Shown here piece after piece: positions 6,054-39,979 of a stretch of 64,000 nucleotides of DNA. Under the pieces are notes generated by a model. It made no database searches and was not told where the DNA came from. It saw only the letters and a list, made by a program, of their open reading frames with translations. Position numbers and translations under genes: made by a program. How positions within the stretch are numbered: the first letter of the stretch is position 1; each line of letters begins with the position of its first letter. Location of the stretch: positions 2,528,001-2,592,000 of the forward strand of contig OZ219791.1 in assembly GCA_964291215.2 (NCBI GenBank), in the 5' to 3' direction. The DNA is from Alphaproteobacteria bacterium. GTDB lineage: Bacteria; Pseudomonadota; Alphaproteobacteria; MPNO01; UBA830.

Positions 6054-6156
6054 CGTAACCGTCGAACACCGACATCTGCACCCAAGTTGGCATTTTTGCA
6101 GCCTGGAATTTTTATCACGTTGCGCGATTTTTTGTCGGCCGATTTCAACATGGCAC

Positions 6157-15698: not shown

Positions 15699-15831
15699 CG
15701 CCTCGTCCTCTACGACGCTGAAGCTTATTGCGCGGCAACAGCGATCAGTCAAGGGCTTAGCATTGCAGGTCACGATGATACCGCGTTTGGCTTCGGGCGA
15801 CAGTTCGCGATGGCTTTTGCCTGAACCGCGG

Positions 15832-18006: not shown

Positions 18007-21000
18007 CGGCGCCATCGTGCTATCCCATGGAGCTGAAAAACACTCATGGAGGAAGCGAATGGACCTGCGACACACTACGACGATCGGGACTGTTTTGGAA
18101 CATCTGATCGCAAACGGAGCAACGGATCTGGGGCGGGTCTTTGGCCAGCTCTTCGAGCTTGCGATGCGCGCGAGCAGTACTTGAAAGCGGGCCACCGGAC
18201 ACCGGAACGACAGGGCTATGCCAACGGCTACAAGCGGATCGACACTCCCGCTGTTACCGTTCAGGTGCCAAAGACGGCCGGTCACGGGGACGACCCGTCC
18301 CCAGTCGCTTGAACGCGGCCAGCGATCTTCTCGCGCCGTCATGCTGGCCGTAGCCGAGATGTACATCAAGGGTGTTTCCACACGGCAAGATGTAATGCGC
18401 GAGTTCGGGAGCCTGTCCTCTTCTCAGGTCAGCCGGGCCACCAGGTTGCTCGACGAAGAACTCACCACCTGGCGCAACCGGTCCCTGATGAAATACCTGA
18501 TCCTGGATGCGCGCTACGAAAAAGCCCGCCATGACGGCGTTGTGCGCGATGTTGCAGTGCTCTCGGCCATCGGAATAGGGGCTGCAGGCACGTTCTGGGG
18601 CTCTCTGTGGCGCTCTACGAGGCCGAGATCCGAGCCTTCCTGGAAAGCTTGCTAGCCCTGCCATGTCATGAAAATTAGGTCTGGACGTGCCACTCGGTCT
18701 GCGCTAGCTTGCCGCCATGATGGCACAATCCAGCATTCTTCACACTCTACGCGAGGACGGGGCCCGGGCGCGCGTTGCTGCCATCCTGTCGCGGGAGCAG
18801 CACTCCGGCCGTCGGGCTGCGAGCCGTATGCGAAGAGTTTTCGTTCCGGGACGCGGCCGGGCGTTGGCAGCTGTCGAGTTGTCTGAAGGCCCTGACCACG
18901 TTGGCATCGTCGTATCCGGAGATCCGGCTTCCGGCACCGCAGGCTGCTGCCAACTCTCCGCGTCTTCTTGACGGAGAAGTGCCGGTCGGGGTGCCGTCCC
19001 GTCTGTCAGGGATGGCGCAGGTGCGGTTGTCGGTGGTGACCGAGGTTTCGGAGCGAACGGTATGGAACACGGCGCGCGAGCATCCTCATGGCATGACGAC
19101 GTTTGCCGGCTGTCAGGTGCGCTATCTTGTGACGTCGGAGCACGGGATCCTGGGTGCGGTCGGGATCTCGGCGGCGGCGTTGACGGGCCCGCGACCGCTG
19201 GATGGCGCCGTCCCGGCGACGGGATCATCGGGTGGTCTGTCTGAGTCGGTTTCTGCTTCGGGTGCGGTGCCGGGAGCCATGTTCTGGGGCGACTTCTCCG
19301 GCGTCTGCCGAGGGATTTCGAGGCCCGGTATGGATTCCGTCCCCTGGTGGTGGAAACCTATGCGGACGAGGGCTATGCTGGGACCTGCCTGCGGGCTGCG
19401 AACTTCGTATGTGCGGGGCGGACGAAGGGTCGTCAGGATCGTCACCATCGCGCTGCCAAGACGGTCAATGGATGCGCGGTCTGGATCGGCGACGCAAGCT
19501 GGGGGTGGGTCCGGTCGCTCCTGCCGGGGCCCGGAGACGGTCTGGATGCTGCGGTGTGGGCGGTGAACGAATTCGGAGGGGCGGGTGACAAGCGACTGTC
19601 GGCACGCCTGGTGAAGAGTGCGGCTCTTCTGGCCTCCTGTCCCGGATTCACGCGAGCACGGATGCCGACAACACGGCGATCAGTGCTTTCTACCGCCTGA
19701 TCGAGAAGCCGGTGGAGAGTGCGGTGGCGAACATTCTTGCTCCGCATCGGGAGCGCACGATCCGGGGCCAAACGACCGTGCTGGCGATTCAGCGACCTCA
19801 ATTTCTCCCGGCGGCCGGGATGCGAAGGTCTTCAGGTCATCGGCAAGAACCAGACCTCCTCGTCGGCCCGGGGTCTGCATGCGACGCTGGCGGAGACGGG
19901 GTTGCCGCTCGGGGTTCTGCGTCTGGGGTTCGATGCGGTGAAGCAGCGCTCCCCGGCGGCCGAGGAGCGGTTGAAGAGCCGGCGCGGAAGGCTTCAAGGA
20001 CATCGACGAAGCGGTCCGCGACGTCGGGAACAAGACGCGCGTGATCTCGGTCTGTGATCGGGAAGCGGACTTCTTCGAGCTGTCATCAACGTCTCAACCC
20101 ACGGGTCGGGCTTCTGCATGACCGGGTTCTCGGCAAGGGGCGCGCTGTTTGCAACCTTGAGCGCAGGCCCGGCGGCATCACCGTCGAGGTCGACGGCGAG
20201 CGTCCGAAGGCGAGCCGAACGAAGGCGCCCGACGCAAACGCGTGGCTCAGTGCGCACTGCGGTTCCGCCGCCTTGCCCTCCACCCTCGAAGGCCGCTCGC
20301 CCTTTCCGGTGTCCACATCATCGAAACCGATCCTCCCGAGAACCCGGTGCAGTGGTTCCTGCTCACCACGCTCAAGGTGCGCAGCGCCGAGGACGCCGCC
20401 AAGATGGTTGGCTTCTACCTCCAGAGGTGGAAGGTCGAAGACTTCTTCCGCGTCCTCAAGTCAGGCTGTCGCACCGAGTTCCTGCTGTTCCGGACCGCAG
20501 AACGACTGCAGCGGGCCATCGCCATCAACGCCGTCATCGCGCATCATGGTCATGACCCTGCGGCAGGTTCCCGACTGTGAGCCCGAGCTGATGTTCACCG
20601 ATCAAGAGCTGAGCTTCCTGCGCGACTACGCCGCCGAGAAGCGCATGACGCCCGCCTCGGGGATGCCGTCCGCCTGGTGGCCCATCTCAGCGGGTACCAG
20701 GATCGCAACCCGAGCCCGGACACCAAGTCATGTGGCACGGCGCGACCCAGCGCCGTTCTTGGCCATCAAGTCGGCTTCCGGGCCGGACAGCGGCAACCCT
20801 TGCAACACATTCAGGCCCTTGACGTCACGTCGTAATTGTCATTACTCGGCAGTGCTAGCCCGTGGCCTGCATGGTACGACCTTCATCGTCTCGGATGACC
20901 ATGCTGGGCTGAAAGCAGCACGACGCGCGGTGCTGGGCGCGGCGATGTGGCAGCGCTGCCAGTTCCACCTGGCGCAAAACGCCGTGCACCGAACAACGAC

Positions 21001-21402
21001 ATCAGGAAACGTATTGGAAAACAGCTCGGAGCCATGCGTCCTCACTCCAAACCGCCGAGGCTGAACTGGGCGCCCTCGTGGCCAGCTATCGCGACAAGCA
21101 TCCAAGCTTCGCAGACTGGCTGGAAAAGAATGCGGGGCTCGCTGTCTTCACCTTGCCTGATGCTCACCGCAAGCGCATGCGAACCTCGAACGGTATCGAG
21201 CGGCCGATCCAGCAAGAGCTCAAGCGGCGCACCTCCAAAGTCAGGGTCTTTCCGAACCCCGCCTCGTTGGAGCGCCTCTCAACCGCGGTCCTCGTCGAGA
21301 TCGACGAAAAATGGGAAACCGAAACCAAGGCATACATCAAATGGGAACAGCTCGATGACTGAGAGCTTCACGACAATTTCCAGACATCAGGTTGCGTAAT
21401 CC
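18006..21402 (+). mobile_element. IS256-family element copy 1 (left end lost; contains an IS4-family insertion)
   Basis: GYANGYK, AVAEMYIKGVSTR, YLILDARYEK, VSDDHAGLKAA, WQRCQFHL, MRTSNGIER; right IR ...TTTCCAGACATCAGGTTGCGTAATCC. Confidence 0.85.
18658..20852 (+). mobile_element. IS4-family (IS50/Tn5-like) element with N-terminal DUF4338-like domain, degenerate
   Basis: IRs CTGCCATGTCATGAAAATTAGG / CGTAATTGTCATTACTCGGCAG; TSD TGCTAGCC(C); WAVNEFGG..GDKRL, WFLLTT, YLQRWKVEDFFRVLKSGC; N-terminal VRYLV..LGAVG, VVCLSRFL, VETY..GTCLRAANF. Confidence 0.8.
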
Positions 21403-21756
21403 TCCCGTCATCACCGCTCGTAAGCCTTTGAAGATTATTCATGATCGACGCCCAGGTGCCGTTCTTGCTCCACCGGTTGAAGCGGTTGAAGCAGGTCGTG
21501 TACGGACCGTAGCGCTCCGGCAGGTCGCGCCACGGCGTACCGGTGCGAAGCACGAAGAATATCCCGTTCATGACCCTCCGGTCATGCACCCGCTCCGGGC
21601 CCTGGTGCTTGTCAGGAAGCACCGAGCGGAGAACCTCCCATTCCGCGTCGCTCATGTCGTGTCGGTCGCCGCTCATCCTTCACTCTCCTTGTGAATCGCT
21701 TTCGACAAGAATAAGGCAGATCATGCAAAATGTCAACATTTGGGTACACAGCCTAG
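21403..21756 (-). pseudogene. IS5-family (IS427-like) OrfA and left end, truncated by IS256
   Basis: DMSDAEWEVL...DRRVMNGIFFVLRTGTPWRDLPERYGPYTTCFNRFNRW; end CTAGGCTGTGTACCCA at 21756. Confidence 0.82.
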
Positions 21757-21818: not shown

Positions 21819-24800
21819 ATGGTGATTCGAGGAGGGGCGTCAGCCACGGCAGACCGTCCGCAATCCGACCCACTGAATGCCATCGTCGACAACTATGGCG
21901 GTCGCTTCGTCGGCGAATTCCTGCGCGAGCGGGTCGAACCCGGTTCAGACCTGTCGATCGTTTCGGCCTATTTCACGATCTACGCCTACGATGCCTTGCG
22001 CCATGCCCTGGAGAAGGCAGGAAGTACGCGTTTCCTCTACGGCGAGCCGAGCGCGGTTGGCGCGGTGGACCCCGGTGGGGACAATGCCAAATCCTTCCTC
22101 CTTAACGAAGACAGCGGCATGGAGCTAAGGCACGCCTTGGCGCAGAAACCGCTGGCGAGGGCCTGTGCCGAATGGGTCCGGAAGCAGGTCGAGATCAGGA
22201 CCATCGCCCGCGCCAACTTCCTGCATGGCAAGCTCTACCATGTCGGGCAAGAGGAAGGGGCTGCGGCCTTGGTGGGCAGTTCCAACTTCACACGGCGCGG
22301 GCTCGGCTTCGGCGCTGTGCCCAATGTCGAGCTCAATCTGGAGGTCCGCAGCGACGAGGACCGGGCGGAACTCCTCCGCTGGTTCGACGGCCTGTGGAAC
22401 GACAACAGCCTGACCCGCGACGCCAAGGCCGACGTGTTGGCTGCGCTTGAGCGACTGGGCCGGCCCTACGCTCCTGAGTTTGTCTATTACAAGACGCTCT
22501 TCCATGTCTTCGAGAGCTGGCTGGAGCGGCATGTGGAGCGGGACGGCCTGCTCCACGATGTCCACTTTCACAACACTGAAATCTGGAAGGCGCTCTACCC
22601 ATTCCAGCAGGACGGCGCGACCAGCGCGATCAACCGCCTCATGCGCTACAATGGCTGCATCGTCGCCGACAGCGTGGGCCTCGGAAAGACTTGGACGGCG
22701 CTGGCGGTCATCAAGTTCTTCGAGTTGCGTAATGAACGGGTTCTCGTCCTGTGCCCCAAGCGGCTCGAAGACAATTGGGTCCGCTACGCGGCGTGGGCGG
22801 CCTCGCGGAACAATCCCTTCGAGAAGGACCGCCTGAGATACGCGGTGCGGGCGCATACGGACCTGAGCCGCTATGAAGGCCGGGCAGGAAGCGTCGACCT
22901 CGCCCAGTTCAATTGGGGCTCGTTCGATCTGATCGTCATCGACGAGTCCCACAATTTCCGCAACGAGGGCCGGGACCGGTTCGATGAGGACGACAATCTC
23001 GTCAGGCGGAGCCGTTACAACCGCTTGCTGGAGGAGGTGTTGAAGAGCGGCGCGCGGACCAAGGTGCTGATGCTGTCGGCAACCCCGGTCAATACCAGCC
23101 TGCGGGACCTGCGCAACCAGATCTACCTGATGACCGAGAAGCGCGAGGACGCGTTCCGGGACGCGCTCGGCATCGGCAACATCCAGTCCATGTTCGGCGT
23201 GGCCCAGCGCGAGTTTCAGCAGTGGGAAGCGGCCCGGCCCGCCGGGCGACGCCCGGACAAGGCGGCCCTTCTGGAGAGGCTCGGCGTGGATTTCCTGTCG
23301 TTGCTGGACGCGGTCTCGTTAGCACGCTCGCGCGACCATATCCGCCGCTACTATCCTGAGGTGGAGACAGCCATCGGCGGTTTCCCCGACCGGGCGCAAC
23401 CGCTGAACCTGTACCCTCGGACGGACAGCAAGGGCGCGTTTTCCTATGACGACATGCACCGGCGGATCGGGGATTTCCGCCTGGCGGTCTATATGCCGTC
23501 GCAATATCTGAAGGACACATCGAGCCTCGACGAGGAGAAGGCGAAGCTGCGCTTCGACCAGCGCGACCGCGAGCGCTGGCTGATCGGCATGATGCGCGTG
23601 AACCTTCTGAAGCGCCTCGAAAGCTCGGTGCATTCCTTCACGCTCACCATGGCGCGCATCCTCGAAAAGATGGACGCCCTCGACGACCTGATCGGGAGAT
23701 GGCGGGAGCGCGGACCGGTCGAAGAGATAGACGCCCGGCCGGACGACGACGAGGAAGATGAGGAATTCGCCATCGGCAGGGGCCGTCGTTACCGGCTGGA
23801 CGAACTAGATGTCGACCGCTGGCAAGAGGACCTGCGCGAGGACCGGCGGGTCTTCCGGGACCTCTATGAGCGGGCGCAGCGTGTAACCGCCGAACGCGAC
23901 GATAAATTGGCTACCCTGAAACGGGTGCTGCGGGAGAAGGTCGAGGCCGCGCCGAAGGACAAGGACGGGCGGGCGAACCGCAAGGCGCTCGTCTTCACGA
24001 CCTTCGCCGATACCGCGAGCTATCTCTATGACCACCTCAAGGGCTGGGCGCGGAACGGCCTCGGCGTCCATATGGCGTTGGTGACCGGCGGAAATGGCAA
24101 CCGCAGCAGTTCGGGCGAAACCGGCTTCATGGAAATCCTGGCCCGGTTCGCACCGAAGGCGCAGCAGGCCGAAAGCGGTGGCGGCGAGATCGACATCGTG
24201 ATCGCAACCGATTGCCTGTCGGAGGGACAGAACCTCCAGGACTGCGACCTGGTGGTGAACTACGACATCCACTGGAACCCGGTGCGGCTGATGCAGCGTT
24301 TCGGGCGGATCGACCGGCTTGGCAGCCGCAACAGGCGCGTTTCCATGACCAATTTCTGGCCGACTGAGGACCTCGAACGCTATCTGGACCTGAAGAACCG
24401 GGTCGAGGCGCGCATGGCGCTGGCGGATGCGGCGGCAACGGGCCTCGACGACCCGCTCAACCGGGACGACCGGACGGAGGACGAGCACAAGGAGGCGGTC
24501 CAGTTGGAACTCGCCTTCCGCGGCCGGCAGCTGACGCGCATGCGAGAGGAGATTCTCGATGTCGAGGAAGCCGAGGACGGCATTACCCTGAACGACCTCA
24601 CGCTGGACGATTTCATCGCCGACCTCTTGAACTTCATCCAGCAGAACCGGGCCGCCATCGAGGCCGCGCCGCTCGGCATCCACGCAGTCGTGGACAATGG
24701 CGCTCCGGCGGGACAGAACCTTCCGGCCGACCGGATACAGCCCGGCGCGATCTTCTGCCTGCGACGCAACGGAGATGCGGCGGCGCGCACCCCGAACCGC

Positions 24801-25169
24801 CTCTGGCCTTACTTTCTCGTCTATGTCCGGGACGATGGAAGCGTGCATTACACCTTCGGGCAGGCCCAACGGTGCCTCGCTCTATTCCGGGCGCTCGCTG
24901 CCGGCCGATCCGATACCTTGCAGGCGCTGGAGGATGCGTTCGACCGGGAAACGCAGCAGGGCCGGTGCATGAAGAAATACGATGCCCTGCTCGCTGCGGC
25001 GCTGCGCAGTATCGCCGGCACTTTCAGGGATGCGGAACTCGCCGGGCTGGGCCGCGACCGCGGCGCCGTGTTGACGGAGAAGCCGCAAACGCCGGACCCT
25101 GCAAGGGACTTCACCCTGGTGACATGGCTGGTCATCGCGAAGAAAGAGGCGGACAGACGCAATGGCTGA
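21819..25169 (+). CDS. Phospholipase-D-type nuclease fused to an SNF2-family helicase (defence-associated)
   Basis: PLD HxK motif LHGKLY...GSSNFT; Walker A ADSVGLGKT; DESH; LSATP; SEGQNLQD; QRFGRIDR; intact 1116 aa. Confidence 0.9.
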   Translation: MVIRGGASATADRPQSDPLNAIVDNYGGRFVGEFLRERVEPGSDLSIVSAYFTIYAYDALRHALEKAGSTRFLYGEPSAVGAVDPGGDNAKSFLLNEDSGMELRHALAQKPLARACAEWVRKQVEIRTIARANFLHGKLYHVGQEEGAAALVGSSNFTRRGLGFGAVPNVELNLEVRSDEDRAELLRWFDGLWNDNSLTRDAKADVLAALERLGRPYAPEFVYYKTLFHVFESWLERHVERDGLLHDVHFHNTEIWKALYPFQQDGATSAINRLMRYNGCIVADSVGLGKTWTALAVIKFFELRNERVLVLCPKRLEDNWVRYAAWAASRNNPFEKDRLRYAVRAHTDLSRYEGRAGSVDLAQFNWGSFDLIVIDESHNFRNEGRDRFDEDDNLVRRSRYNRLLEEVLKSGARTKVLMLSATPVNTSLRDLRNQIYLMTEKREDAFRDALGIGNIQSMFGVAQREFQQWEAARPAGRRPDKAALLERLGVDFLSLLDAVSLARSRDHIRRYYPEVETAIGGFPDRAQPLNLYPRTDSKGAFSYDDMHRRIGDFRLAVYMPSQYLKDTSSLDEEKAKLRFDQRDRERWLIGMMRVNLLKRLESSVHSFTLTMARILEKMDALDDLIGRWRERGPVEEIDARPDDDEEDEEFAIGRGRRYRLDELDVDRWQEDLREDRRVFRDLYERAQRVTAERDDKLATLKRVLREKVEAAPKDKDGRANRKALVFTTFADTASYLYDHLKGWARNGLGVHMALVTGGNGNRSSSGETGFMEILARFAPKAQQAESGGGEIDIVIATDCLSEGQNLQDCDLVVNYDIHWNPVRLMQRFGRIDRLGSRNRRVSMTNFWPTEDLERYLDLKNRVEARMALADAAATGLDDPLNRDDRTEDEHKEAVQLELAFRGRQLTRMREEILDVEEAEDGITLNDLTLDDFIADLLNFIQQNRAAIEAAPLGIHAVVDNGAPAGQNLPADRIQPGAIFCLRRNGDAAARTPNRLWPYFLVYVRDDGSVHYTFGQAQRCLALFRALAAGRSDTLQALEDAFDRETQQGRCMKKYDALLAAALRSIAGTFRDAELAGLGRDRGAVLTEKPQTPDPARDFTLVTWLVIAKKEADRRNG

Positions 25170-28100
25170 GGATTTGTTGCGGAAGATATCCAAAGCGCTT
25201 GCTGCGCTGGCCGGCGAGTCGCCGCTGCGCGAAGGCGCAAAGGGAGTGTTGAACGCGCTCGGCTACGAAAGCGCACGGACGGCAGAGGCGGGAAGCGTCG
25301 AAGAATTTCTGGACCGCTTCAAGCCCGAAAAGCCGCTGACCGACAAGCAACGCCGCCTGTTCGACGACTGGCGCAATGTCGAAATCGTGTTCCAGGTCAC
25401 CGGCGACGAGATCGAACTCCGGCCGGACCAAACCGGTCTGTTCAACGGTCCCGGTTTCGACCGAGGACGCACCAAGTCTTTCCTGTTCCTCTCTGTGGAT
25501 ATGCAGTCGGCCGACTATCCCCGCACCCATCTGGCGCAGACAACGCGCGCCATCAATCGGCTCTTCAGGATGCCGGTCATCGTCCTGTTCCGACACGGCT
25601 CGGCCCTGACGCTGGCCGCCGTCCACCGGCGCGCCCGCAAGCGGGACGATAATCGGGACGTGCTGGAGAAGGTGACGCTGGTCAAGGATATCCGCCTTCA
25701 GGACCCACACAGGGCGCATGTCGAGATTCTGGCCGATCTGAGCCTGAAAAGCATGATCGGGGCAGGCGTCCGCAGCTTCGACGGTCTGCATGAAAAATGG
25801 GAACATACACTCGACATCGAGGCGTTGAACAAGCGCTTCTACAAGGAACTGTTCCAGTGGTTCGAGCGGGCGGTGGAGGAGTGCAGCTTCCCGGACGACG
25901 GCGCTGGGAAAGACAGCGACCAGCGCCATGTCATCCGGTTGATCACGCGGCTCCTGTTCATCTGGTTCCTGAAGGAGAAGGGGTTGGTCCCGGAGGACTT
26001 GTTCGAGGAACGATTCGCGCGCGAACGACTCAAGGATTATGAGCCCGAGAGCACCGGCTATTACCGGGCCGTGCTCCAGAACCTGTTCTTTGCGACGCTG
26101 AACACCGAGATCGACAGGCGCGCCTTCAGCACTCGGACACCGGAGTCTCGCCGCGATTTCAATAGATACCGCTACCGGGACCTGCTCACGGACCCGGAGG
26201 GTTTTGTCGAAAAGTTGAGACAGGTTCCGTTCGTAAATGGAGGACTGTTCGACTGCCTGGACGACTTCGCGGCGGCAGGCGAGAGTGGGCGGCGCATTGA
26301 TGCCTTCTCCGACTCCGACGATATCGACACCCAAGCCGGCCGGGACCTGCATGTGCCTGCGTGGTTGCTGCTCGGCGAGTCGGACGGCCTGTTCGCCCTG
26401 TTCCGCCATTACAAATTCACGATCGAGGAGAATACGCCGCTCGACACCGAGGTTGCGCTGGACCCGGAACTGCTCGGCCGCGCGTTCGAGAACCTGCTGG
26501 CCGCCTACAACCCGGAGACGCGCGAGACGGCGCGTAATGCCACCGGTTCCTATTACACGCCGCGCCAGGTGGTGGACTACATGGTCCGCGAGGCGCTCAC
26601 CGAGGCGCTGATCTCAAAATCGGAGCCGGCCGACGGCGATACCGACTTCTGGCGCGAGCGTATCGACTATCTGCTGGATCATTCGGCCGCGATGGACGAT
26701 GCGCAGAAACTCTTCTCTGATCCCGAGAAGAGGGCGCTTGTCGACGCCATTGCGGGACTCACGACGCTCGATCCCGCAGTCGGATCCGGCGCCTTCCCGA
26801 TGGGTATCTTGCAAACGCTTACCCTGGCGCTGCGCCGCCTCGACCCGGGGAACGCCCTTTGGGAGACGTTTCAGAGAGAGCGGGCGGCGGCGCGAGCCGA
26901 ACAAGCGTTCGACACCGAGGATCGGCGGCAGCGCGACAACGAACTGACCGAGATCAGCCCTACGTTCGACCGGTATCGGCAGACCGATTTCGGACGCAAG
27001 CTGTACCTGATCCAGAACGGCATATACGGCGTCGATATCCAACCCATCGCCTGCCAGATCGCCAAGCTGCGTTTCTTCCTCTCGCTCGCCATAGAGCAGA
27101 ACCGGAATCCGGCCGAACCAAATCTGGGCATCAAGCCGCTGCCCAATCTGGAAACCCGGTTCGTCGCGGCGGATACGTTGCGCCGGCTCGACCGGCCGGC
27201 GCAGGGGGAGCTCGGTCGCACCGAAAATGTAAGAAGGCTGGAGGCTGAACTGAAGGCCAATCGCGAGCGGTACTTCCATGTGGGCGACCGGCAGGCGAAG
27301 CGGAATTTACGGAAGCGGGACGCCAAACTGCGCCGACAACTGGCCTCGGACCTCCGGCAGGCCGGTTTCCAAGAGAGCGCCGCTGAAAACATAGCCCGGT
27401 GGGACCCTTACGACCAGAACGAGTACGCCGACTGGTTTGACCCGGAGTACATATTCGGCATTTCCAGCGGCTTTGACGTCGTAATCGGCAACCCGCCCTA
27501 CATCCAGTTGCAGAAGAATGGCGGGTTGTTGGGCAAGCGGTACGGGAACGCCGACTATGAAACCTTTGCGCGTACAGGGGATATCTACCAACTTTTCATC
27601 GAGTGCGGTTGCAGGCTTCTCAGTCCCGGTGCGGGCGCGCTGGCTTACATCACGTCCAACAGTTGGCTGAAGGCGGAATACGGACGGCGCCTTCGACAGT
27701 ACCTTGCCAACCGGCACACCCCGCTCATGCTGATCGAGATGGGAAAGGATGTGTTCGACAATGCGATCGTCGATACGGCGGTTCTGATCGTCCGAAACGG
27801 CAAGGCCCGGTCTGTGACCTGTCGGGCGGTGGACATCGACCGGACATCGCACCGTCGATTCCCTCCCCCGCAAGGAGACTGGGGGACGTTGCAGCCGGAA
27901 GGCGAGCGGCCATGGATGGCGCTTTCATCCGTCGAACGCACCGTGATGGAGAAGATGGAAGCGGTCGGGACACCCCTGAAGGATTGGGATATCTCCATTT
28001 ACTATGGAATCAAAACCGGCTTCAACGACGCCTTCATCGTGGACCAGACCACACGGGACGCCCTCGTCGCGGCAGACCCCAGATCGGCGGAGCTTCTGAA

Positions 28101-28782
28101 GCCCATCCTCAGGGGCCGCGATATAGCGCGTTACCGTGCAAATTGGGCCGGGCTTTACCTGATATCAACATTTCCGTCTCTCAATCTAGACATCGATGCA
28201 TATCCAGCCATCAAGCGACATCTTTTGTCTTTTGGAAAAGAACGTCTTGTCCAGGATGGACGCCGTCTGCCGGGAGGAGGTCAATCTAGGAAGAAGACTT
28301 CCAACGCCTGGTACGAGATTCAGGATACTTGCGCTTACCATGAGGAATTTGGAAAAGCGAAACTGTTTTGGATGCACATGACCCCCTATGGGAGGTTCGT
28401 ACTGGCCGATCCAGATGTCGTATGCAATCAAAAGTGCTTCATGGTAACGAGTATGAACCTAGAATACCTATGTGCTGTCCTCAATAGCAAGCTGATTACC
28501 TGGCTTGTAAGACGCACTGCCGTAACAACTGGAATGGGACTTCCCCAGTGGGACAAATTCACCGTTGAACGCGTCCCAGTTGTGCAACCAGATCACCTTG
28601 TCATGGCTGAGATGAAGGTCATCGTGAAATCAATTCTTGCTGCCATAGAGAGCGACGATGTTCACGAAATATCCAAACTCCAGCAGAAACTCAACGATCA
28701 AGTCTTTGAACTTTATCAGCTCACGGAATTTGAGCGTGCGGCTATTTCGCGAGCCATTAATGACTTGTCGCCGACTCTATAA
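25162..28782 (+). CDS. Eco57I/Type IIG-like N6-adenine DNA methyltransferase with C-terminal TaqI-like target recognition domain
   Basis: PFVNGGLF, GSYYTPR, DPAVGSGAF (motif I), GVDI, VIGNPPY (motif IV), YYGIKTG, LRGRDI, LCAVLNS; overlaps the upstream gene by 8 bp. Confidence 0.92.
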   Translation: MAEDLLRKISKALAALAGESPLREGAKGVLNALGYESARTAEAGSVEEFLDRFKPEKPLTDKQRRLFDDWRNVEIVFQVTGDEIELRPDQTGLFNGPGFDRGRTKSFLFLSVDMQSADYPRTHLAQTTRAINRLFRMPVIVLFRHGSALTLAAVHRRARKRDDNRDVLEKVTLVKDIRLQDPHRAHVEILADLSLKSMIGAGVRSFDGLHEKWEHTLDIEALNKRFYKELFQWFERAVEECSFPDDGAGKDSDQRHVIRLITRLLFIWFLKEKGLVPEDLFEERFARERLKDYEPESTGYYRAVLQNLFFATLNTEIDRRAFSTRTPESRRDFNRYRYRDLLTDPEGFVEKLRQVPFVNGGLFDCLDDFAAAGESGRRIDAFSDSDDIDTQAGRDLHVPAWLLLGESDGLFALFRHYKFTIEENTPLDTEVALDPELLGRAFENLLAAYNPETRETARNATGSYYTPRQVVDYMVREALTEALISKSEPADGDTDFWRERIDYLLDHSAAMDDAQKLFSDPEKRALVDAIAGLTTLDPAVGSGAFPMGILQTLTLALRRLDPGNALWETFQRERAAARAEQAFDTEDRRQRDNELTEISPTFDRYRQTDFGRKLYLIQNGIYGVDIQPIACQIAKLRFFLSLAIEQNRNPAEPNLGIKPLPNLETRFVAADTLRRLDRPAQGELGRTENVRRLEAELKANRERYFHVGDRQAKRNLRKRDAKLRRQLASDLRQAGFQESAAENIARWDPYDQNEYADWFDPEYIFGISSGFDVVIGNPPYIQLQKNGGLLGKRYGNADYETFARTGDIYQLFIECGCRLLSPGAGALAYITSNSWLKAEYGRRLRQYLANRHTPLMLIEMGKDVFDNAIVDTAVLIVRNGKARSVTCRAVDIDRTSHRRFPPPQGDWGTLQPEGERPWMALSSVERTVMEKMEAVGTPLKDWDISIYYGIKTGFNDAFIVDQTTRDALVAADPRSAELLKPILRGRDIARYRANWAGLYLISTFPSLNLDIDAYPAIKRHLLSFGKERLVQDGRRLPGGGQSRKKTSNAWYEIQDTCAYHEEFGKAKLFWMHMTPYGRFVLADPDVVCNQKCFMVTSMNLEYLCAVLNSKLITWLVRRTAVTTGMGLPQWDKFTVERVPVVQPDHLVMAEMKVIVKSILAAIESDDVHEISKLQQKLNDQVFELYQLTEFERAAISRAINDLSPTL
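27961..28151 (+). repeat. Outer inverted repeat, left arm (191 bp)
   Basis: Exact reverse complement of 29343-29533; encodes AVGTPLKDWD...RYRANWAG. Confidence 0.95.
28329..28351 (+). repeat. Inner inverted repeat, left arm (23 bp)
   Basis: TTGCGCTTACCATGAGGAATTTG, exact reverse complement of 29170-29192; encodes CAYHEEF. Confidence 0.9.
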
Positions 28783-29169
28783 CTTGTATCTCCTCTGCGG
28801 AGATTCCATAGATCTCATAGACTAACTCATCAATCTGCTTCTCGATTTTGTACGAATGGCTATCAACAGACGAAGTGGCAGAACGAGCTTCCTCGACCAA
28901 TTTACGCAGGCGTATCGCTGTAGACGGGCATGGCTTCGCTACAGGCACTGACTCCATGTATACTTTCTTCCACCGAGATACGCCCATACCCGAAGTGGGC
29001 GCAGTCTTCAGAATGTACCAGTGTGCGAGTCGTGAGTTAAGAATTGCACAGAGGTAGCTCATTTGCTTGCCGGTGATCATGAATGCCGTAGCTTCGATGA
29101 ACATTCTGCTATCGTCGTACGCGAATCTGCCTCGGTCGACCAGTTCTATCCAGATGACCTTCTCGGATG

Positions 29170-29192
29170 CAAATTCCTCATGGTAAGCGCAA
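29170..29192 (-). repeat. Inner inverted repeat, right arm (23 bp)
   Basis: CAAATTCCTCATGGTAAGCGCAA. Confidence 0.9.
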
Positions 29193-29342
29193 TTACGGAG
29201 ATTGTAAGGCGTGATGCCCTGATCTTGGCGATGCTCAAGATGCTCGATGAAACGGTCTAGATGGGCCTTGACCGCTGGATACTCATCAGCATTGATCGGG
29301 GGCACATCAGCATATCCGTTGTGCGTGTCGATCAACCAAAGG

Positions 29343-29533
29343 CCGGCCCAATTTGCACGGTAACGCGCTATATCGCGGCCCCTGAGGATGGGCTTCAGAA
29401 GCTCCGCCGATCTGGGGTCTGCCGCGACGAGGGCGTCCCGTGTGGTCTGGTCCACGATGAAGGCGTCGTTGAAGCCGGTTTTGATTCCATAGTAAATGGA
29501 GATATCCCAATCCTTCAGGGGTGTCCCGACCGC
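29343..29533 (-). repeat. Outer inverted repeat, right arm (191 bp)
   Basis: Exact reverse complement of 27961-28151. Confidence 0.95.
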
Positions 29534-29535
29534 GA

Positions 29536-30498
29536 ATGAGTTATCTAGACAATGCATGGAATACGGGGGATACGTGCTGTGGGGATGTATTGCGGAAGGC
29601 AGCCAAGTCTGAAAATACGCGGGCCGCGTATGAGAAGGGCTGGCGGCGTTTCGCGTCTTGGTGCCAAAGCGTCGATGTGGTGCCCCAAGACGCCACCGCA
29701 GATGACGTGGTCAGGTTTCTCATTGCCATGGCGAGCGGAAGCGGGGGAGGCAGCCGCAAGCCACTCGCGCTGAATACTCTGAGGCTCTACCGCAGCGGGT
29801 TGAACGATTGGTGGTGCGGGAGGGAGATGCCGTCGCCCGCGTCGGCAAATGTCGTGGACGAGGTGCTGCAAGGCCTGGCAAGACTTCGTGGCGAGAAGCC
29901 GCGTCGGGTAAAGGCGCTTCGTGAGCATCATCTGCTTGCGATGTTGGAGTCGTGCGGGAATGGTTTGCACGGACGACGGGATGCGGCAGTCCTGTCCCTG
30001 GGCTTCGCCGCGGCGCTCCGGCGGTCGGAATTATGTCAATTGCGAATGGAGGACCTTGAGCGCAAAAGCGGCGAAGGAATGATGGTTCATTTGCGGCGCT
30101 CAAAAACCGACACCCGGGGTACAGGACAAAAGGTGGCGCTACTCAAGGGGAAGACGATCAAACCTGTCGCGCATGTAGAAGGCTGGCTTCAGGCTTCAGG
30201 CATAAAGAACGGGTTTGTCTTTCAGACGTTGTTGCGCGGCGGTGTCGCGTCAAGGCGCCCGCTCGACCCCGGCGATGTTGCTCGGATCGTAAAGCGACAT
30301 ACCCGAAGGATAGGTCTCGATCCCCGGGAGTATTCCGGGCACTCGCTGCGAGCCGGGTTCGTAACAAGTGCAGCGGTCCACCACGCAAGGATCGACAAGA
30401 TCATGGAGGTGACCCGCCACAGAAGTGCAGAAACGGTACTGAAATACATGCGCGACGAGGAGGCGTTTCTCGATCATGCGGGGGCATCGTTTCTTTGA
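29536..30498 (+). CDS. Tyrosine recombinase (Cre/XerD-like), putative invertase
   Basis: SENTRAAY..W N-domain; catalytic R (ALRRSEL), K (RSKTD), HxxR (HSLRAG), H (TRHRS), Y (LKYMR); ATG 2 bp beyond the outer repeat. Confidence 0.9.
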   Translation: MSYLDNAWNTGDTCCGDVLRKAAKSENTRAAYEKGWRRFASWCQSVDVVPQDATADDVVRFLIAMASGSGGGSRKPLALNTLRLYRSGLNDWWCGREMPSPASANVVDEVLQGLARLRGEKPRRVKALREHHLLAMLESCGNGLHGRRDAAVLSLGFAAALRRSELCQLRMEDLERKSGEGMMVHLRRSKTDTRGTGQKVALLKGKTIKPVAHVEGWLQASGIKNGFVFQTLLRGGVASRRPLDPGDVARIVKRHTRRIGLDPREYSGHSLRAGFVTSAAVHHARIDKIMEVTRHRSAETVLKYMRDEEAFLDHAGASFL

Positions 30499-31643
30499 CG
30501 CTGCTTCTGGAAGTCCGTTGACTAGCCTTCTCCACAGCCACTCGAAGAGCATGAAGACTCGGCAGCGGCGGCTCGTCCGGCTCCGCCGCCAACTCGCCCC
30601 GCTTCCAGCGCCACGCCGCCGTTGCCGGGAATCTCTCCTGCCACCACCGGCGCCACCGCAGGGGGCAGAAGGTACTGTAACTTGATGTCTGGAAATTTGT
30701 CTGAGGTTTGCGCTTTGAGGCGTTTCACTGGGGGGGCTAGCCCCCCAGTGAAGCGCGGCGCCATCGTGCTATCCCATGGAGTTGTAAAACCTTCATGGAG
30801 GAAGCGAATGGACCTGCGACACACTACGACGATCGGGACTGTTTTGGAACATCTGATCGCAAACGGAGCAACGGATCTGGGGCGGGTCTTTGGCCAGCTC
30901 TTCGAGCTTGCGATGCAAATCGAGCGCGAGCAGTACTTGAAAGCGGGCCACCGGACACCGGAGCGACAGGGCTATGCCAACGGCTACAAGCGGATCGACA
31001 CCCCCGCTGTTACCGTTCAGGTGCCAAAGACGGCCGGTCACGGGGACGACCCCCCCCCCAGTCGCTTGAACGCGGCCAGCGATCTTCTCGCGCCGTAGCC
31101 GAGATGTACATCAAGGGTGTTTCCACGCGGCAGGATGTAATGCGCGAGTTCGGGAGCCTGTCCTCTTCTCAGGTCAGCCGGGCCACCAGGTTGCTCGATG
31201 AAGAACTCGCCGCGCAACCGGCCCCTGATGGAATACCTGGATGCGCGCTACGAAAAAGCCCGCCATGACGGCGTTGTGCGCGATGTTGCAGTGCTCTCGG
31301 CCATCGGAATAGGGGCGCTGACGAGCGCAGGCACGTTCTGGGGCTCTCTGTGGCGCTCTCCGAGGCCGAGGTCCGAGCCTTCCTGGAAAGCTTGCTAGCC
31401 CTGCATGGTACGACCTTCATCGTCTCGGATGACCATGCTGGGCTGAAAGCAGCACGACGCGCGGTGCTGGGCGCGGCGATGTGGCAGCGCTGCCAGTTCC
31501 ACCTGGCGCAAAACGCCGTGCAGCACGCACCGAACAACGACATTAGGAAACGTATTGGAAAACAGCTCGGAGCCACGCCTCCTCACTCCAAACCGCCGAG
31601 GCTGAACTGGCCGCCCTCGTGGCCAGCTATCGCGACAAGCACC

Positions 31644-33023
31644 TGTCGCTAACAAGCGATATGTCCGGTGGATGTAACATGCGATCTGTCCGGTTCAGAT
31701 GCTTCATAAATGAGGAAGCCGATGAATCGGACAAGAGTGTTACAGGAATTACGGATTATGAAGTTTGAAGAGTTGTATTCACGAAGGCAGGCGAAGCAGT
31801 TGAGCCAGGAGCAGGCCGCCGAGATTCTTGGTGTATCTGTGCGTTCGGTGCGTCGCTGGGAGGAGCGCTACGAGGCGGAAGGAGCCGAAGGTCTTTATGA
31901 CAAGCGCCTTGGCCGTCTGGCTGGCAACCGCGTTCCGGTCGATACGGTGACGGAGGTTCTTGAGTTGTTCGACACCCGCTACTGGGACTACACGGCCAAG
32001 CATTTCCACGAGAAGCTGGTCAAGGACCACGGGTTCACGCACAGCTACAACTGGGTGCGCCTGACGCTTCAGGCCAACGGCCGGGCGGCCCCGCGCCGCG
32101 GTGCGCATCGCCGCAAGCGTGCTCCGCGGCCGATGGCGGGCATGATGCTGCACCAGGACGGCTCCACTCACGAATGGGTGCCCGGACAGTCGTGGGATCT
32201 GATCGTGACCATGGACGATGCCACCAGCGAGAGCTACTCGGCCTTCTTCGTCCCCGAAGAGGGCACGATGAGCACCTTTCAGGGCATCCAGGAGGTGATC
32301 GAGGCCAAGGGCCTGTTCTGTTCGCTTTACGCCGATCGGGGGTCGCACTACTGGCACACAGCCGGCGGCAAGGTCGACAAGGACAACCTGACCCAGGTGG
32401 GCCGGGCGCTCCAGCAGCTCCGCATCGAACTGATCCCCGCCTATTCGCCTGAGGCGCGCGGCCGCTCGGAGCGCATGTTCGGCACACTGCAGAAGCGTCT
32501 GCCGCAGGAATTGCGTACACAGGGCATCGAGACGATGGACGAAGCCAATCTCTTCCTCAAGGATGTCTTCCTGCCCGATCACAACGCCCGGTTCATGCGC
32601 AAGCCGGAAGATGGGGGATCGGCTTTCATGGACTTCGCCGGCAACGTTGGCGACATCCTGTGCGTGCAGGAAGACCGCGTCGTCGGCAACGACAATACGG
32701 TGCGCTACAAGGGACGCGTGCTGCAGATCGCGAGCCACCGCCACCATTTCGTCAAGGCGCGCGTCAGGGTGCACGAATATCCTGACGCCTCGCTGGCCGT
32801 GTTCCACGGCCCCATGTGCATCGGCCGGTATCAGTCTGACGGCCAACCGGCCGGGAAGGAGAAAACGATCGAGAAGGCTGCGTGAACCGCTTCGGCGCGG
32901 GCCGAACGCAGCCGGTCAAGCCTGCGGTCGCTACCGCTCCCTTCGGCTTGACCGGCTGCGCCACCAACAGAAGCGGACAAACCGCATGGTACCTAGACCG
33001 GACAACTCAGAATGTTGTCGACA
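31644..33023 (+). mobile_element. IS1202-family (IS481-related, formerly ISNCY) element with 17-bp TSD
   Basis: TGTCG...CGACA ends with internally repeated TGTCCG; direct repeat CTATCGCGACAAGCACC at 31627-31643 and 33024-33040. Confidence 0.88.
31710..32885 (+). CDS. IS1202/IS481-like DDE transposase
   Basis: HTH (QAAEILGVSVRSVRRW), MLHQDGS, MDDAT, YADRGSHY, SPEARGRSERMFGTLQ; open 391 aa. Confidence 0.88.
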   Translation: MRKPMNRTRVLQELRIMKFEELYSRRQAKQLSQEQAAEILGVSVRSVRRWEERYEAEGAEGLYDKRLGRLAGNRVPVDTVTEVLELFDTRYWDYTAKHFHEKLVKDHGFTHSYNWVRLTLQANGRAAPRRGAHRRKRAPRPMAGMMLHQDGSTHEWVPGQSWDLIVTMDDATSESYSAFFVPEEGTMSTFQGIQEVIEAKGLFCSLYADRGSHYWHTAGGKVDKDNLTQVGRALQQLRIELIPAYSPEARGRSERMFGTLQKRLPQELRTQGIETMDEANLFLKDVFLPDHNARFMRKPEDGGSAFMDFAGNVGDILCVQEDRVVGNDNTVRYKGRVLQIASHRHHFVKARVRVHEYPDASLAVFHGPMCIGRYQSDGQPAGKEKTIEKAA

Positions 33024-34268
33024 CTATCGCGACAAGCACCCAGGCTTCGCAGACTGGCTGGAAAACAATGCGGGGCTCGCTGTCTTCACCTTGCCCGATG
33101 CTCACCGCAAGCGCATGCGAACCTCGAACGGCATCGAGCTCCAGCAAGAACTCAAGCGGCGCACCTCCAAAGTCAGGGTCTTTCCAAACCTTGCCTCGTT
33201 GGAGCGCCTCTCAACCGCGGTCCTCGTCGAGATCGACGAAAAATGGGAAACCGAAACCAAGGCATACATCAAATGGGGTATCTACTCACCCCTAGTTGGG
33301 TTCTGATTGGTCGTAGTGCTCGTTGATGATGTCTGCGGCTTTTCCGTCGAGGGCGATCTGGGTGGCGACGAGTGGGTTGTAGCCGAGTGCGGCCATGGAG
33401 GTGAGGTAGCTTGAGCCTCGGCACCATGCTTTTGCGTGGAGCGGAAGCATCCGGACACCTTGACCTTTGCCATCCTGATCTTCTGTTCTCCGGCATTGTT
33501 GGTGAAGCTGACGTCGGGGTTGTCTGTGAAGCGCAGGTTTTCGTGTTTCACGAGACGCAGGTTGTGCGCGTTTGCGATGCGTTTTCTTTTCGTCGGCGGC
33601 GGGATGTCGGGCAGTTCCTTGGCGCCCTGATGGTACGGTAGCGCTTGCGCACGGCCCGGCGTCGTTCAGGGTCTTGGATGCGCTCTTGTTGACCTTGTGG
33701 CAGACTTCGCGGAGCAGGCTCTTCATCAGTCGCGCCCAGCGGTAGCCTCGACGACGAAGGTCAGTTCGCGCAGCAGGTGGCTGCCGCACAACTGGTGGCT
33801 ACACTGGCCCATGTACGAGGCCCAGCAGTCCAGGACGCCCTTGTAGCACGGGATGATGCCGATCTCTTGCCTCCCGGCCGCGCTTGCGGTGCGGGAACTT
33901 GCACGTCAGGGTTCCGACGACATGGAGCCACTTACTGTTGGTCCGAAATCGTCGACATGCAGGGCCGGGCGTTGCAGGAGGTGCGCCACGGCGGCCTCCG
34001 ACGCGAGCGCATCGTGAAAGCATAGCCGAGGCAGGTTGCCTCGGAGAGCCTGATGCCGGAGGTCGCCTGCACGAGCGCGACGGCACGACGCAGGGACAGC
34101 ATCTGGGCGACCAGCAGGTTGATGACGAGGGCCTGGATGCCGATGCCGTACTGCACGGGATGTTGTCGGGGAACCGGCCCCGGGCCTTGCACTTCGGGCA
34201 TTCCTTGATCTCGGCGCGGCGCTCGACGACCTCGAACACAATGTCATAGAGGACGCGGCGCTCCCGAT

Positions 34269-35741
34269 CGATTACGCAACCTGATGTCTGGAAATTGTCG
34301 TGAAGCTGATCGAGCTGTTCCCATTTGATGTATGCCTTGGTTTCGGTTTCCCATTTTTCGTCGATCTCGACGAGGACCGCGGTTGAGAGGCGCTCCAACG
34401 AGGCAAGGTTTGGAAAGACCCTGACTTTGGAGGTGCGCCGCTTGAGTTCTTGCTAGAGCTCGATGCCGTTCGAGGTTCGCATGCGCTTGCGGTGAGCATC
34501 GGGCAAGGTGAAGACAGCGAGCCCCGCATTGTTTTCCAGCCAGTCTGCGAAGCTTGGGTGCTTGTCGCGATAGCTGGCCACGAGGGCGCCCAGTTCGGCC
34601 TCGGCGGTTTGGAGTGAGGAGGCGTGGCTCCGAGCTGTTTTCCAATACGTTTCCTGATGTCGTTGTTCGGTGCGTGCTGCACGGCGTTTTGCGCCAGGTG
34701 GAACTGGCAGCGCTGCCACATCGCCGCGCCCAGCACCGCGCGTCGTGCCGCTTTCAACCCGGCATCCGAGACGATGAAGGTCGTACCATGCAGGGCTAGC
34801 AAGCTTTCCAGGAAGGCTCGGACCTCGGCCTCGGAGAGCGCCACAGAGAGCCCCAGAACGTGCCTGCAGCCCCTATTCCGATGGCCGAGAGCGCTGCAAC
34901 ATCGCGCACAACGCCGTCATGGCGGGCTTTTTCGTAGCGCGCATCCAGGATCAGGTATTTCATCAGGGGCCGGTTGCGCCAGGCGGCGAGTTCTTCGTCG
35001 AGCAACCTGGTGGCCCGGCTGACCTGAGAAGAGGACAGGCTCCCGAACTCGCGCATCACATCTTCGGCCAGGGCTCTTCTTTTTCCCGGTTTCGTCCGAC
35101 GAGGGGGCGTTGTAGGCAGATCTGGAGGTCCATTCAGGAGCGGACTTCGTTGTCGATATGCCGGTTTCGATCTTGAGACGGTGCCACCAACTTCAAGAAC
35201 GGCCACTCTGACACGGTTGTCTGCCGCCGACCGCGACAACAGAATGGTCCTGCATCTTCGGCCTGCCGTGTGGAAACACCCTTGATGTACATCTCGGCTA
35301 CGGCCACGGCGCGAGAAGATCGCTGGCCGCGTTCAAGCGACTGGGGATAGAACGGGTCGTCCCCGTGACCGGCCGTCTTTGGCACTTGAACGGTAACAGT
35401 CCCGACGGGGGTGTCGATCCGCTTGTAGCCGTTGGCATAGCCCTGTCGCTCCGGTGTCCGGTGGCCCGCTTTCAAGTGCTGCTCGCGCTCGATTTGCATC
35501 GCAAGCTCGAAGAGCTGGCAAAAAACCCGCCCTAGATCCGTTGCTCCGTTTGCGATCAGATGTTCCAAAACAGTCCCGATCGTCGTAGTGTGTCGCAGGT
35601 CCATTCGCTTCCTCCATGAAGGTTTTACAACTCCATGGGATAGCACGATGGCGCCGCGTTTCACTGGGGGGCTAGCCCCCCAGTGAAACGCCTCAAAGCG
35701 CAAACCTCAGACAAATTTCCAGACATCAAGTTACAGTACCC
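34269..35741 (-). mobile_element. IS256-family element copy 3 (degenerate; contains a MITE)
   Basis: Both IRs present; near-identical to copy 2 in reverse orientation. Confidence 0.87.
35069..35252. mobile_element. 184-bp MITE with CAGG ends and 10-bp TSD
   Basis: Ends CAGGGCTCTTCT / AGAATGGTCCTG; TSD CATCTTCGGC (35059-35068, 35253-35262); absent from the other IS256 copies. Confidence 0.8.
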
Positions 35742-36455
35742 CTATCCCCCTATCCGACGGGGTCGACGCCGTCGGCGCCGCAGGCGTCGCAGGCATCGAC
35801 CGCCTCCTCGACGATGGTCTTGCGCAGGTTGTCGCCCATCTGCTGGTTTGGCTTCGGGCCTTTGCCGTTGCTCCCGGCACGCCTCGCGCTCTTGTCCGTC
35901 TGTGACGGCGGCAGACCGGAGTTCCGGCTCGTTTTGCGCGTGGTCTTCTCCAGAAGGACGACGATGAGGATGTCGAGCAGGAGGACGCGGATCACGGCCT
36001 CTTTCGGCACCTTGCCGGCCGCACGCAGCGCCGCGACCTTGGCCGCTTCGAACTCCTCGCGCGCCGCGTTGACCGTCGCCATCACCCGGCCTCGACGGTC
36101 GCCGCGAGCATCGCCTGGCGCTCGCTCGGCGGCATCTTCCGGTACTCCGCCGCCCGGCCTTGCGCTTCATCAGCGCGCCGCCTCCGAGATGCGTTTCCAG
36201 ATACAGATCATGCGGGGGCTGGAGCCCCGGAAGCAGCTGGCACAGCCCGCTCGTCGCCTTCGATCCAAAGTAGCCCACTGGCGATCCCCGTCGCTCTCGA
36301 TGACCACCACAAAACGAATCGGGTGTCAAATTTCCACGAAAACCCGTTCGTTGCTCTACCCCGACATCAAGCCGGAACCAGGGGGTGAGCAGTTACCAAA
36401 TGGGAACAGCTCGATCAGCTTCACGACAATTTCCAGACATCAGGTTGCGTAATCT

Positions 36456-36698
36456 CACGAGGGAGGACATCACGGCGCTCTGCGCCCTGGCCGCCCATTC
36501 AAGCTTCCCCGGGCACCGCCGGACATGACCATCATGAGTTTCGTCGCGCTCACCGGCGGGCTGCCCGGGACACAGAAGCTATGGGAGGGCGTCAGGTTCC
36601 TGTCTCAGGCCGTCATCGGCATTCGGGCCAAGGAGGGCTGGGACGAGAACCACTCGGAAGGAGATGAAGACACGGAGTTAAGTATGTTAGATTGATAG
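36456..36698 (+). pseudogene. 3' remnant of an IS4 (Tn5-like) transposase with its end
   Basis: LPGTQKLWEG matches MPGTHKLWEG of 49317-51496; terminal ...ATTGATAG resembles ...ATTGAAAG. Confidence 0.6.
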
Positions 36699-37185: not shown

Positions 37186-37474
37186 CCCAGAATAAGGGGT
37201 GAGCAGCTACGAGAGATCTAGCGTATTGCGCGACATTCCGGTCGTGGGGCGCTGGGTCAGAATCCGTATGAGGGGCGAACTCGTGATCCTCGGGAACTCA
37301 CAATAAAGACCGCTGTGTGGTACACACCGTTATCCTCCATATTCTCTTACCGGTCGCACAGACGACGAGTCGCAGTGTCCATTCATCGAACTGTATGCTT
37401 GAGTCCGTATCGGGGTTCCTGACAAAGTGGTCCGGTGCCGTACTGACCTATCGTGATCCAGCGGCCGCCCGGTC

Positions 37475-39968: not shown

Positions 39969-39979
39969 GTCCGTAGTCC

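Follow-up and report, generated by a model that had tools for sequence, protein, structure and literature searches.

How could one DNA methyltransferase (MTase) gene come to recognise several sequences, and at which points would its DNA be cut and rejoined? The question is raised by a locus at positions 21819-30498 of the window, the whole 64,000-nt stretch of an Alphaproteobacteria bacterium analysed here (contig OZ219791.1 of assembly GCA_964291215.2), to which all coordinates below refer; the genome searched amounts to 6.15 Mb. Three intact genes lie there between arrays of insertion sequences (IS): one for a fusion of a phospholipase D (PLD) domain with an SNF2 helicase, one for an MTase whose target recognition domain (TRD) is followed by an inverted cassette, and one for a tyrosine recombinase. 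With a probability of roughly 0.7, we read this as a two-gene defence system resembling restriction-modification (RM), in which the Cre-like recombinase would reshuffle the specificity of the MTase at predicted short lox-like sites.

Three genes and two nested inverted repeats

Along the locus, Pfam domains follow each other as PLDc_2, SNF2 and Helicase_C, then Eco57I and TaqI_C, then TaqI_C again in the cassette, and finally Phage_integrase. The features used below are:

21819-25169, + strand: PLD(HKD)-nuclease/SNF2 helicase fusion of 1116 amino acids (aa), likely restriction effector (Pfam PLDc_2, SNF2-rel_dom, Helicase_C)
25162-28782, + strand: single-chain N6-adenine MTase with TaqI-like TRD, expressed allele of 1206 aa (Eco57I, TaqI_C)
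27961-28151, + strand: left arm of the exact 191-bp inverted repeat, exactly complementary to 29343-29533
27981-28010, + strand: predicted outer site 1A, spacer CTCCAT at 27993-27998
28113-28142, + strand: predicted middle site 3A, spacer AGCGCG at 28125-28130
28152-28328, + strand: variable module V1, T-type (ends QDT), with the equivalents of CamA R425/Q438/W439
28317-28346, + strand: predicted inner site 2A, spacer TTGCGC at 28329-28334, at the start of the 23-bp repeat
28352-28782, + strand: variable module V2-a, expressed allele, with the equivalents of CamA Y455/S472/A473/S514/I517/Y521
28757-29533, - strand: silent inverted TRD cassette with open frame (TaqI_C, E 3e-15), made up of V2-b (28757-29169), N-type V1 (29193-29342) and the right arm (29343-29533)
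29175-29204, - strand: predicted inner site 2B, spacer at 29187-29192, near-perfect dyad GTAA/TTAC
29352-29381, - strand: predicted middle site 3B, spacer at 29364-29369
29484-29513, - strand: predicted outer site 1B, spacer at 29496-29501
29536-30498, + strand: Cre-like tyrosine recombinase of 320 aa, catalytic R163, K190, H269, R272, H295 and Y304

A preliminary description of this DNA had reported the 191-bp repeat and a two-state inversion. Recomputed complementarity upheld every coordinate of the repeat (27961-28151 / 29343-29533) and the 1191 bp that separate its arms, and translation bore out that both tails keep the frame and that inversion turns the 1206-aa protein into one of 1191 aa. 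A second exact inverted repeat of 23 bp (28329-28351 / 29170-29192), nested within the first, had been overlooked. Flips at the outer and inner positions together give four alleles of 1206, 1200, 1191 and 1197 aa, all translated in frame; the outer flip therefore stands as described, and the count of states does not, since the inner repeat makes the switch probably a four-state rather than a two-state one. The 191-bp repeat lies in frame within the MTase (aa 934-997), and no further copy of it was found anywhere in the genome. The expressed tail (631 nt, 28152-28782) and the silent tail (586 nt, 28757-29342) have a 26-nt overlap at their 3' ends; 67 residues, of 210 and 195 respectively, are identical between them, and both are AT-richer than the gene core (GC 0.47 and 0.49 vs 0.62).

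The MTase joins a gamma-class N6-methyladenine (m6A) MTase and its TRD in one polypeptide, with the motifs DPAVGSG537 (motif I) and NPPY777, and a structure model of aa 746-1200 matches CamA and M.BseCI (E 1e-24, template modelling (TM) score 0.70). PADLOC models of Type IIG enzymes cover its C-terminal half (best E-value 2.6e-132, aa 607-1199); a profile of the C-terminal part had matches at E <= 1e-60 in 50 of 201 genomes from the order of one Bacteroidales record (L051). An active Type IIG enzyme, with nuclease and MTase in one chain, was ruled out on the missing PD-(D/E)xK motif: no conserved (E/D)xK was found in 23 aligned N-termini (LFLSVDM at aa 108-114 in the window copy). Structure searches with a model of the N-terminal part had no match, whether by Foldseek (E <= 0.001) or by VIA-align (Z >= 8), and its fold is only weakly like the N-termini of DrdV (Z 5.4, root-mean-square deviation (rmsd) 3.9, 121 aligned) and BpuSI (Z 4.5, rmsd 4.3, 125 aligned). 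Because the N-terminal domain shows no conserved nuclease motif and only this weak likeness, the PLD domain is the likely nuclease of the system. Its catalytic residues (H136-x-K, GSSN153, N-x-E169) are kept in 36 of 38 aligned copies, the window copy included, the SNF2 motifs are intact, the PADLOC HKD+Snf2 model matches the protein (E 7e-107), and the stop of its gene overlaps the MTase start at 25162. The earlier outline, in which a single-chain adenine MTase has an invertible TRD and a recombinase of its own and the likely nuclease is a separate PLD-SNF2 protein, is supported.

The recombinase carries the full R-K-H-R-H/W-Y set of catalytic residues, which is invariant in all eight aligned sequences, and its best 17 matches among solved structures are Cre or Tre (E 1e-14). 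ATG at 29536 (320 aa) is a more likely start than GTG at 29521, because relatives start there.

Relatives and the predicted recombination sites

Relatives of the MTase were compared across 52 genome loci. The cassette and this recombinase occur together in 12 of them, the cassette alone in one (L002), and 39 have no cassette; the recombinase was matched in 12 loci, always beside an inverted cassette, and in none of the 39. These 12 loci come from Pseudomonadota, Latescibacterota, Chloroflexota, Nitrospinota, Verrucomicrobiota and Binatota; a search of genomes for the same architecture, which the preliminary description had proposed, returned the layout in 12 other genomes of six phyla. A search by recombinase only yielded 10 loci, one of which duplicated L026, with a cassette upstream in seven of the nine others; a first metagenome scan with a single recombinase query gave nothing. 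In an MTase tree of 32 rows (20 further MTase loci, short, split or distant, were left out), cassette loci are scattered, with seven changes, at least five of them forced by well-supported branches, a count on which we reject one common origin for the cassette-bearing cores of the MTase.

Exact matches between the two arms cluster at an inner point, which encodes CAYH, and at an outer point. The predicted sites consist of a left element, a 6-bp spacer and a right element TWAYYRNG (about RTAH-N6-TWAYYRNG), and were counted over 13 recombinase-bearing loci, that is, the window and the 12 others. Spacers are identical between arms in 13/13 loci, at the outer and at the inner site; there are seven different outer spacers among the 13 loci, and in none is the outer spacer the same as the inner. 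The Ala codon of the inner site is GCT in all 26 arms vs 4 of 16 cassette-less homologues, and the Ile codon of the outer site is ATT in 22/22 in-frame arms (leaving out four frameshifted arms, unaligned at that column) vs 2/18; at other degenerate codons modal use is mostly 25-70%. The outer point lies at the margin of the silent cassette in 11 of the 12 others, where the silent arm becomes homologous 1-6 nt ahead of the outer core. Once reverse-complemented, left elements look like right elements in all four classes, even at the non-coding outer site (dyad score -3.5 vs -18.2 +/- 2.2 for random, 0/5000 draws).

The middle pair is silent in the window because both arms are identical around it. 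Its codons are the same in 12/12 arms of the window's recombinase clade, L002 included; as a family-wide feature it was rejected, being variable in clade 2. The full site pattern occurs 17 times in the genome, six times within this switch, where four of the six sites had been used to derive the pattern and the middle pair had not. As an out-of-sample test we took seven further loci, found by recombinase alone, and placed their sites by protein motif: right elements fit at 10 of 11 inner and 9 of 9 outer sites, and five of six spacer pairs are identical. Since the long repeat is just 70-94% identical in 10 of the 12 relatives while the short spacers are invariant, the 191-bp repeat is probably not the unit that the recombinase recognises.

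How the two modules might divide specificity is suggested by the contacts listed for CamA, in which Q346/I349, R425, Q438, W439 and R441 read base pairs 1-3, and Y455, S472, A473, S514, I517 and Y521 touch base pairs 4-5 as well as the rearranged pair next to the target (PMC8187626). In a profile alignment (E 8e-46, ~18% identity), the equivalents of Q346/I349 fall just past the outer spacer (Y948, K951) and that of R441 among the invariant spacer codons; the inner site comes between equivalents of residues that read different parts of the motif. Four different motifs are predicted for the four alleles because this alignment splits the base-reading residues between V1 and V2.

In the mechanism that we propose, the MTase would place m6A within an asymmetric motif about 6 bp long, and DNA without the mark would be cut, with use of ATP, by the PLD-SNF2 protein translated together with it. 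The recombinase would bind the dyad elements (about RTAH-N6-TWAYYRNG) and exchange strands across the 6-bp spacer. Because the spacers are different, CTCCAT at the outer, AGCGCG at the middle and TTGCGC at the inner site, each site should pair only with its own partner, and frame-breaking cross-reactions would be avoided. An outer flip would then swap the whole TRD and an inner flip (~850 bp) V2 only, V1 (T or N) combined with V2 (a or b) giving four enzymes; the motif bases distant from the target adenine would be read by V1 together with the residues that directly follow site 1, and the bases neighbouring that adenine by V2. The long perfect repeat would be a by-product of homogenisation spreading from the outer site.

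Orientations in relatives and alternative readings

In every recombinase-bearing locus the two V1 modules are of different type, one T and one N; the T-type is expressed in 3/13 loci and the N-type in 10/13. The same V2 pair stands behind opposite V1 types in four pairs of sister loci: L005/L010 (85-90% identical), L025/L026, L001/L017 and window/L022.

Further data came from runs X1 to X5, used as k-mer contigs, in which rare variants are dropped and the 191-bp repeat is unresolvable. Contigs of run X1, which may be the source sample, reproduce the locus without a single difference and stop exactly 30 bases inside each arm, where a real repeat of more than 31 bases would be expected to end them; the repeat is thereby confirmed, in a way that is blind to orientation. 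An X3 contig (depth 3) bridges the junction of right arm and recombinase with 0 differences (29436-29586); the preliminary description had asked that spanning reads support the repeat. In X2, a contig of 953 nt passes from V1-T (+) into V2-b (-) exactly via the 23-bp repeat (joint 28328/29192), and other X2 and X3 contigs start or stop at 28329 and 28351, a pattern that a mixture of states or of strains would produce. Run X4, labelled as a sponge metagenome, holds a relative of the SNF2-MTase part (~94% identity) and no long piece across the cassette or the recombinase; X5 gave only short, partly fitting pieces.

Several observations count against a recombinase-driven switch at these sites, or against its working in this strain. 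The hybrid X2 contig belongs to a relative and not to this clone (21 differences in 299 nt of V1 and 4 in the remaining 654 nt), an X1 contig (28122-29372) runs unbroken through both inner sites and so presents a single inner state, and switching in the window strain is itself inferred, the second orientation being seen in the DNA of relatives only. Inner spacers of L104 differ at 2 positions, L101 has GCC rather than GCT at the inner Ala, L098 and L099 (98.8% alike, with different V1 types) differ at 2 bases just right of the spacer despite their common V2 start, and a TAT codon travels with the T-type V1 in L022, L099 and L100. In view of the exceptions in L104, L101 and L098/L099, the limits of crossover are uncertain and gene conversion also acts. 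Left elements of the outer silent sites are variable, and in the Chloroflexota loci their register is off by one base; dyad likeness at the non-coding outer site is partly a remnant of coding sequence; and the arms are of common ancestry, so that the site counts overstate independence. The CamA residues were mapped by sequence profile at ~18% identity and not by superposition. Decay is seen in several relatives (L001, L002, L025, L035, L036), with frameshifted arms in L001, L025 and L036. Lastly, the leader of ~55 nt that precedes the recombinase of the clade-mates L001, L017 and L096, a hairpin over a ribosome-binding site with GGGGA, is absent from the window: the repeat arm ends 2 nt before the ATG, and MTase-derived sequence (29502-29535) extends right up to it.

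The last point bears on the alternative to which we give most room, a distinct though minority possibility, that the family switches and the window copy is locked, with change left to rare homologous recombination or gene conversion after the recombinase lost its ribosome-binding leader. As that leader was replaced by an extended repeat arm, which may have overwritten it, the window copy may switch rarely, and switching in this strain may be slow or off. The single inner orientation in X1 contigs fits a locked copy, as do a genome full of IS copies, the L002 locus (no recombinase, a 1693-bp repeat), the frameshifted arms named above and an insertion in L035. Against it, the recombinase and both tails are intact and all six sites preserved, and, since the leader that was lost formed a hairpin over the ribosome-binding site, expression need not fall without it. 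Invertases need little protein. A locked copy would moreover affect the rate in the window strain and not the mechanism. Much less room is left for the MTase as an epigenetic regulator or orphan, with a PLD-SNF2 protein that is no site-directed nuclease, which we consider unlikely: CamA, the nearest solved relative, is an orphan MTase, 12 of the 52 loci (several on short contigs) lack an SNF2 match nearby, and our literature search gave no experimental paper on such a pair. An SNF2 gene is nevertheless near in 40/52 loci, the PLD catalytic residues are conserved as described and the two genes overlap, and distribution is patchy (such MTases occur in 1 of 40 related genomes) and ignores host phylogeny, as that of defence genes does.

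A plain two-state switch, in which the 1191-bp segment flips between the 191-bp repeats through the recombinase or RecA and the 23-bp repeat is a conserved protein motif, appears more improbable still. The perfection and length of the 191-bp repeat would allow homologous recombination, some cassette-less homologues keep CAYH too, and X1 shows no branch at the inner site; this reading is at odds with an inner site whose synonymous codons are fixed in recombinase-bearing loci alone, with the inner-flipped X2 contig and the four sister pairs, and with the imperfect long repeats of 10 of the 12 relatives. To an assembly artefact or a decaying duplication we give next to no credence. The locus does sit in repeat-rich DNA and the data are at contig level, but X1 contigs match it without a difference, the X3 contig spans one junction, 12 other genomes of six phyla share the layout, and the tails are divergent and in frame; this explanation is in substance refuted. 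Reshuffling by the Cre-like recombinase at short sites remains our preferred account.

Related loci, known systems and significance

Some related loci vary the layout. L002 (8555-12776) pairs a cassette and a perfect 1693-bp repeat with no recombinase, and carries the window's V2-a and V2-b types in opposite order. In L035 (9835-13368) an insertion of 3.5 kb, lying between the outer site and the middle one, splits the expressed MTase arm. L012 (2627-14117), a possible direct-repeat variant, has three tandem MTase copies after one SNF2 gene, two with a distant TRD match, and L018 (1673-2837 and 6836-6863) has repeats of ~37 nt with a 51-nt period upstream of SNF2, with inverted copies nearby. 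Two Lactococcus plasmids (L062, 2414-10784; L063, 1737-10230) encode a helicase, an N6-MTase, an inverted TaqI_C cassette and an Mpi-type serine invertase and express opposite arms, which makes them a culturable model for this class. The distant L095 (4630-7061) has a resolvase-type gene and two repeats, an outer one of 142 bp and an exact inner one of 25 bp directly after the CAY motif, that is, the same inner junction with a different recombinase family. None of these three distant loci, with their Mpi-type invertase (L062, L063) or resolvase (L095), has the sites predicted here.

The same genome, whose 64% GC and two-piece tmRNA suggest an alphaproteobacterium, holds a second defence-like locus (L061, 7722-15240; G000:C2, ~2,392,700-2,400,200), made up of an Eco57I-type MTase of 1092 aa, a 299-aa open reading frame (ORF) without Pfam match and a PLD-SNF2 protein of 1112 aa that is 28% identical to that of the window; a cassette-type repeat was sought there and no inverted cassette was found. 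Around the locus of the window, the preliminary description had seen three intact genes amid decayed DNA; their domains were found, and the flanks proved to be multicopy IS-type DNA, in which many 500-bp tiles have 100-290 genome matches as against 1-2 for tiles of the locus. Fragmented multicopy IS arrays are dense at 6000-14000, 15500-21700 and 30500-37400 (<=290 matches per tile), and 31710-32885 is an intact, apparently low-copy IS481-like transposase gene. Farther downstream lie a cytochrome c1 gene with two ORFs upstream (37894-40546, probably petABC) and a fusion of a molybdopterin dehydrogenase large subunit with CoxG (987 aa), followed by its FAD subunit (53014-56855). Promoter and terminator scans were uninformative (4 promoter-like matches vs 2.8 +/- 1.6 in shuffles; 6 terminator-like matches vs 8.1 +/- 2.7).

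The preliminary description had not recognised the combination as characterised, which does not hold for its architecture. Inversions confirmed by long reads are reported for Cj0031-like Type II RM genes by Milman et al. (2023), with a PLD and SNF coding sequence (CDS) immediately upstream of an inverted Type II RM gene in B. ovatus (CP083813.1, their Table 3), and downstream of one in S. mutans (CP044495.1) (PMC9881135). The window locus is likely an invertible-specificity defence locus of this kind: it has an adjacent PLD-SNF CDS, upstream of a long MTase gene (downstream in L025, L026 and L036), and an inverted, 5'-truncated copy of the 3' end of that gene with inverted repeats. The passages of that paper compared here name no recombination sites, Cre-like invertase or split within the TRD for these loci (PMC9881135), and more than two variants may occur there. 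The architecture was thus already known, and the predicted orthogonal lox-like sites, the Cre-like invertase, the split TRD and the four-way shuffle are added detail. The gene pair had been noted by van Mastrigt (2018) as orf33-orf34 of L. lactis pLd8, in a sequence description that proposes the PLD as nuclease; as in the window, a PLD-SNF2-helicase accompanies a IIG-type MTase with TaqI_C and no restriction domain, while inversion, unlike here, is not mentioned in the passages compared (PMC6098607). In a literature search with few subscription journals in its scope, we found no description of these sites or of nested TRD shuffling in the class and, as far as it reaches, the PLD-SNF2 and MTase pair is biochemically uncharacterised.

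Among better-studied switches, the pneumococcal SpnD39III/cod (ivr) locus is alike in that a tyrosine recombinase (PsrA/CreX) acts on several nested pairs of inverted repeats, long repeats rely on internal short IR1-like sequences, and specificities are combinatorial (PMC7096588, PMC7672463). As described there, that three-subunit Type I system shuffles two whole HsdS TRDs and has HsdR as partner, whereas shuffling in the window would take place inside the single TRD of a monomeric gamma-class MTase with a PLD-SNF2 partner. Cre, the best structure match of the recombinase, cuts after base 1 and base 7 of its 8-bp spacer, which leaves a 6-bp overlap (PMC6007267). The R-K-H-R-H-Y set and a predicted 6-bp overlap between dyad elements recur in the window, at a distance (E 1e-14) and with imperfect, codon-embedded dyads, three spacers per locus and a role in inversion, whereas Cre/loxP serves plasmid resolution. 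CamA, M.BseCI and M.TaqI (gamma-class m6A) are like the window MTase in catalytic and TRD fold; they lack its 740-residue N-terminal part and have a fixed specificity. Four other assignments were rejected: Class 1 DISARM (DrmD 151 bits vs a cut-off of 610; flanks of IS, the drm genes not having been searched genome-wide), BREX type 1 (PglX 72 bits vs 500; no brxC or pglZ neighbours), the Type-2 BREX-related PLD-helicase system NF042964 (135 bits vs 1100; no further long ORF in the locus), which pairs an HKD-helicase with a DUF499 partner in the account cited (PMC12839542), and a Type I hsdS shufflon, as separate HsdR, HsdM and HsdS were not found.

In its most general form, which we lean towards by a small margin over even odds, our reading is of a heterospecific-lox shufflon: one Cre-like recombinase and up to three mutually exclusive site pairs with 6-bp spacers, set in codons, would shuffle sub-TRD modules into four motifs (here) to eight per locus, eight applying to loci with different first modules, and the device would have spread to six or more phyla of uncultured bacteria. 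The 2023 catalogue of Type II MTase inversions gives no sites, enzyme mechanism or motifs for this class; with named sites the switch becomes testable on 30-bp substrates. For the recognition code of TaqI/Eco57I-type enzymes, swappable V1 and V2 modules between which the base-reading residues of a single TRD are divided would form a natural training set (~20 loci, two V1 classes and several V2 classes), and a recombinase with predicted orthogonal spacers is a candidate for a new Cre-type tool. The PLD-SNF2 and MTase pair itself is a candidate defence system.

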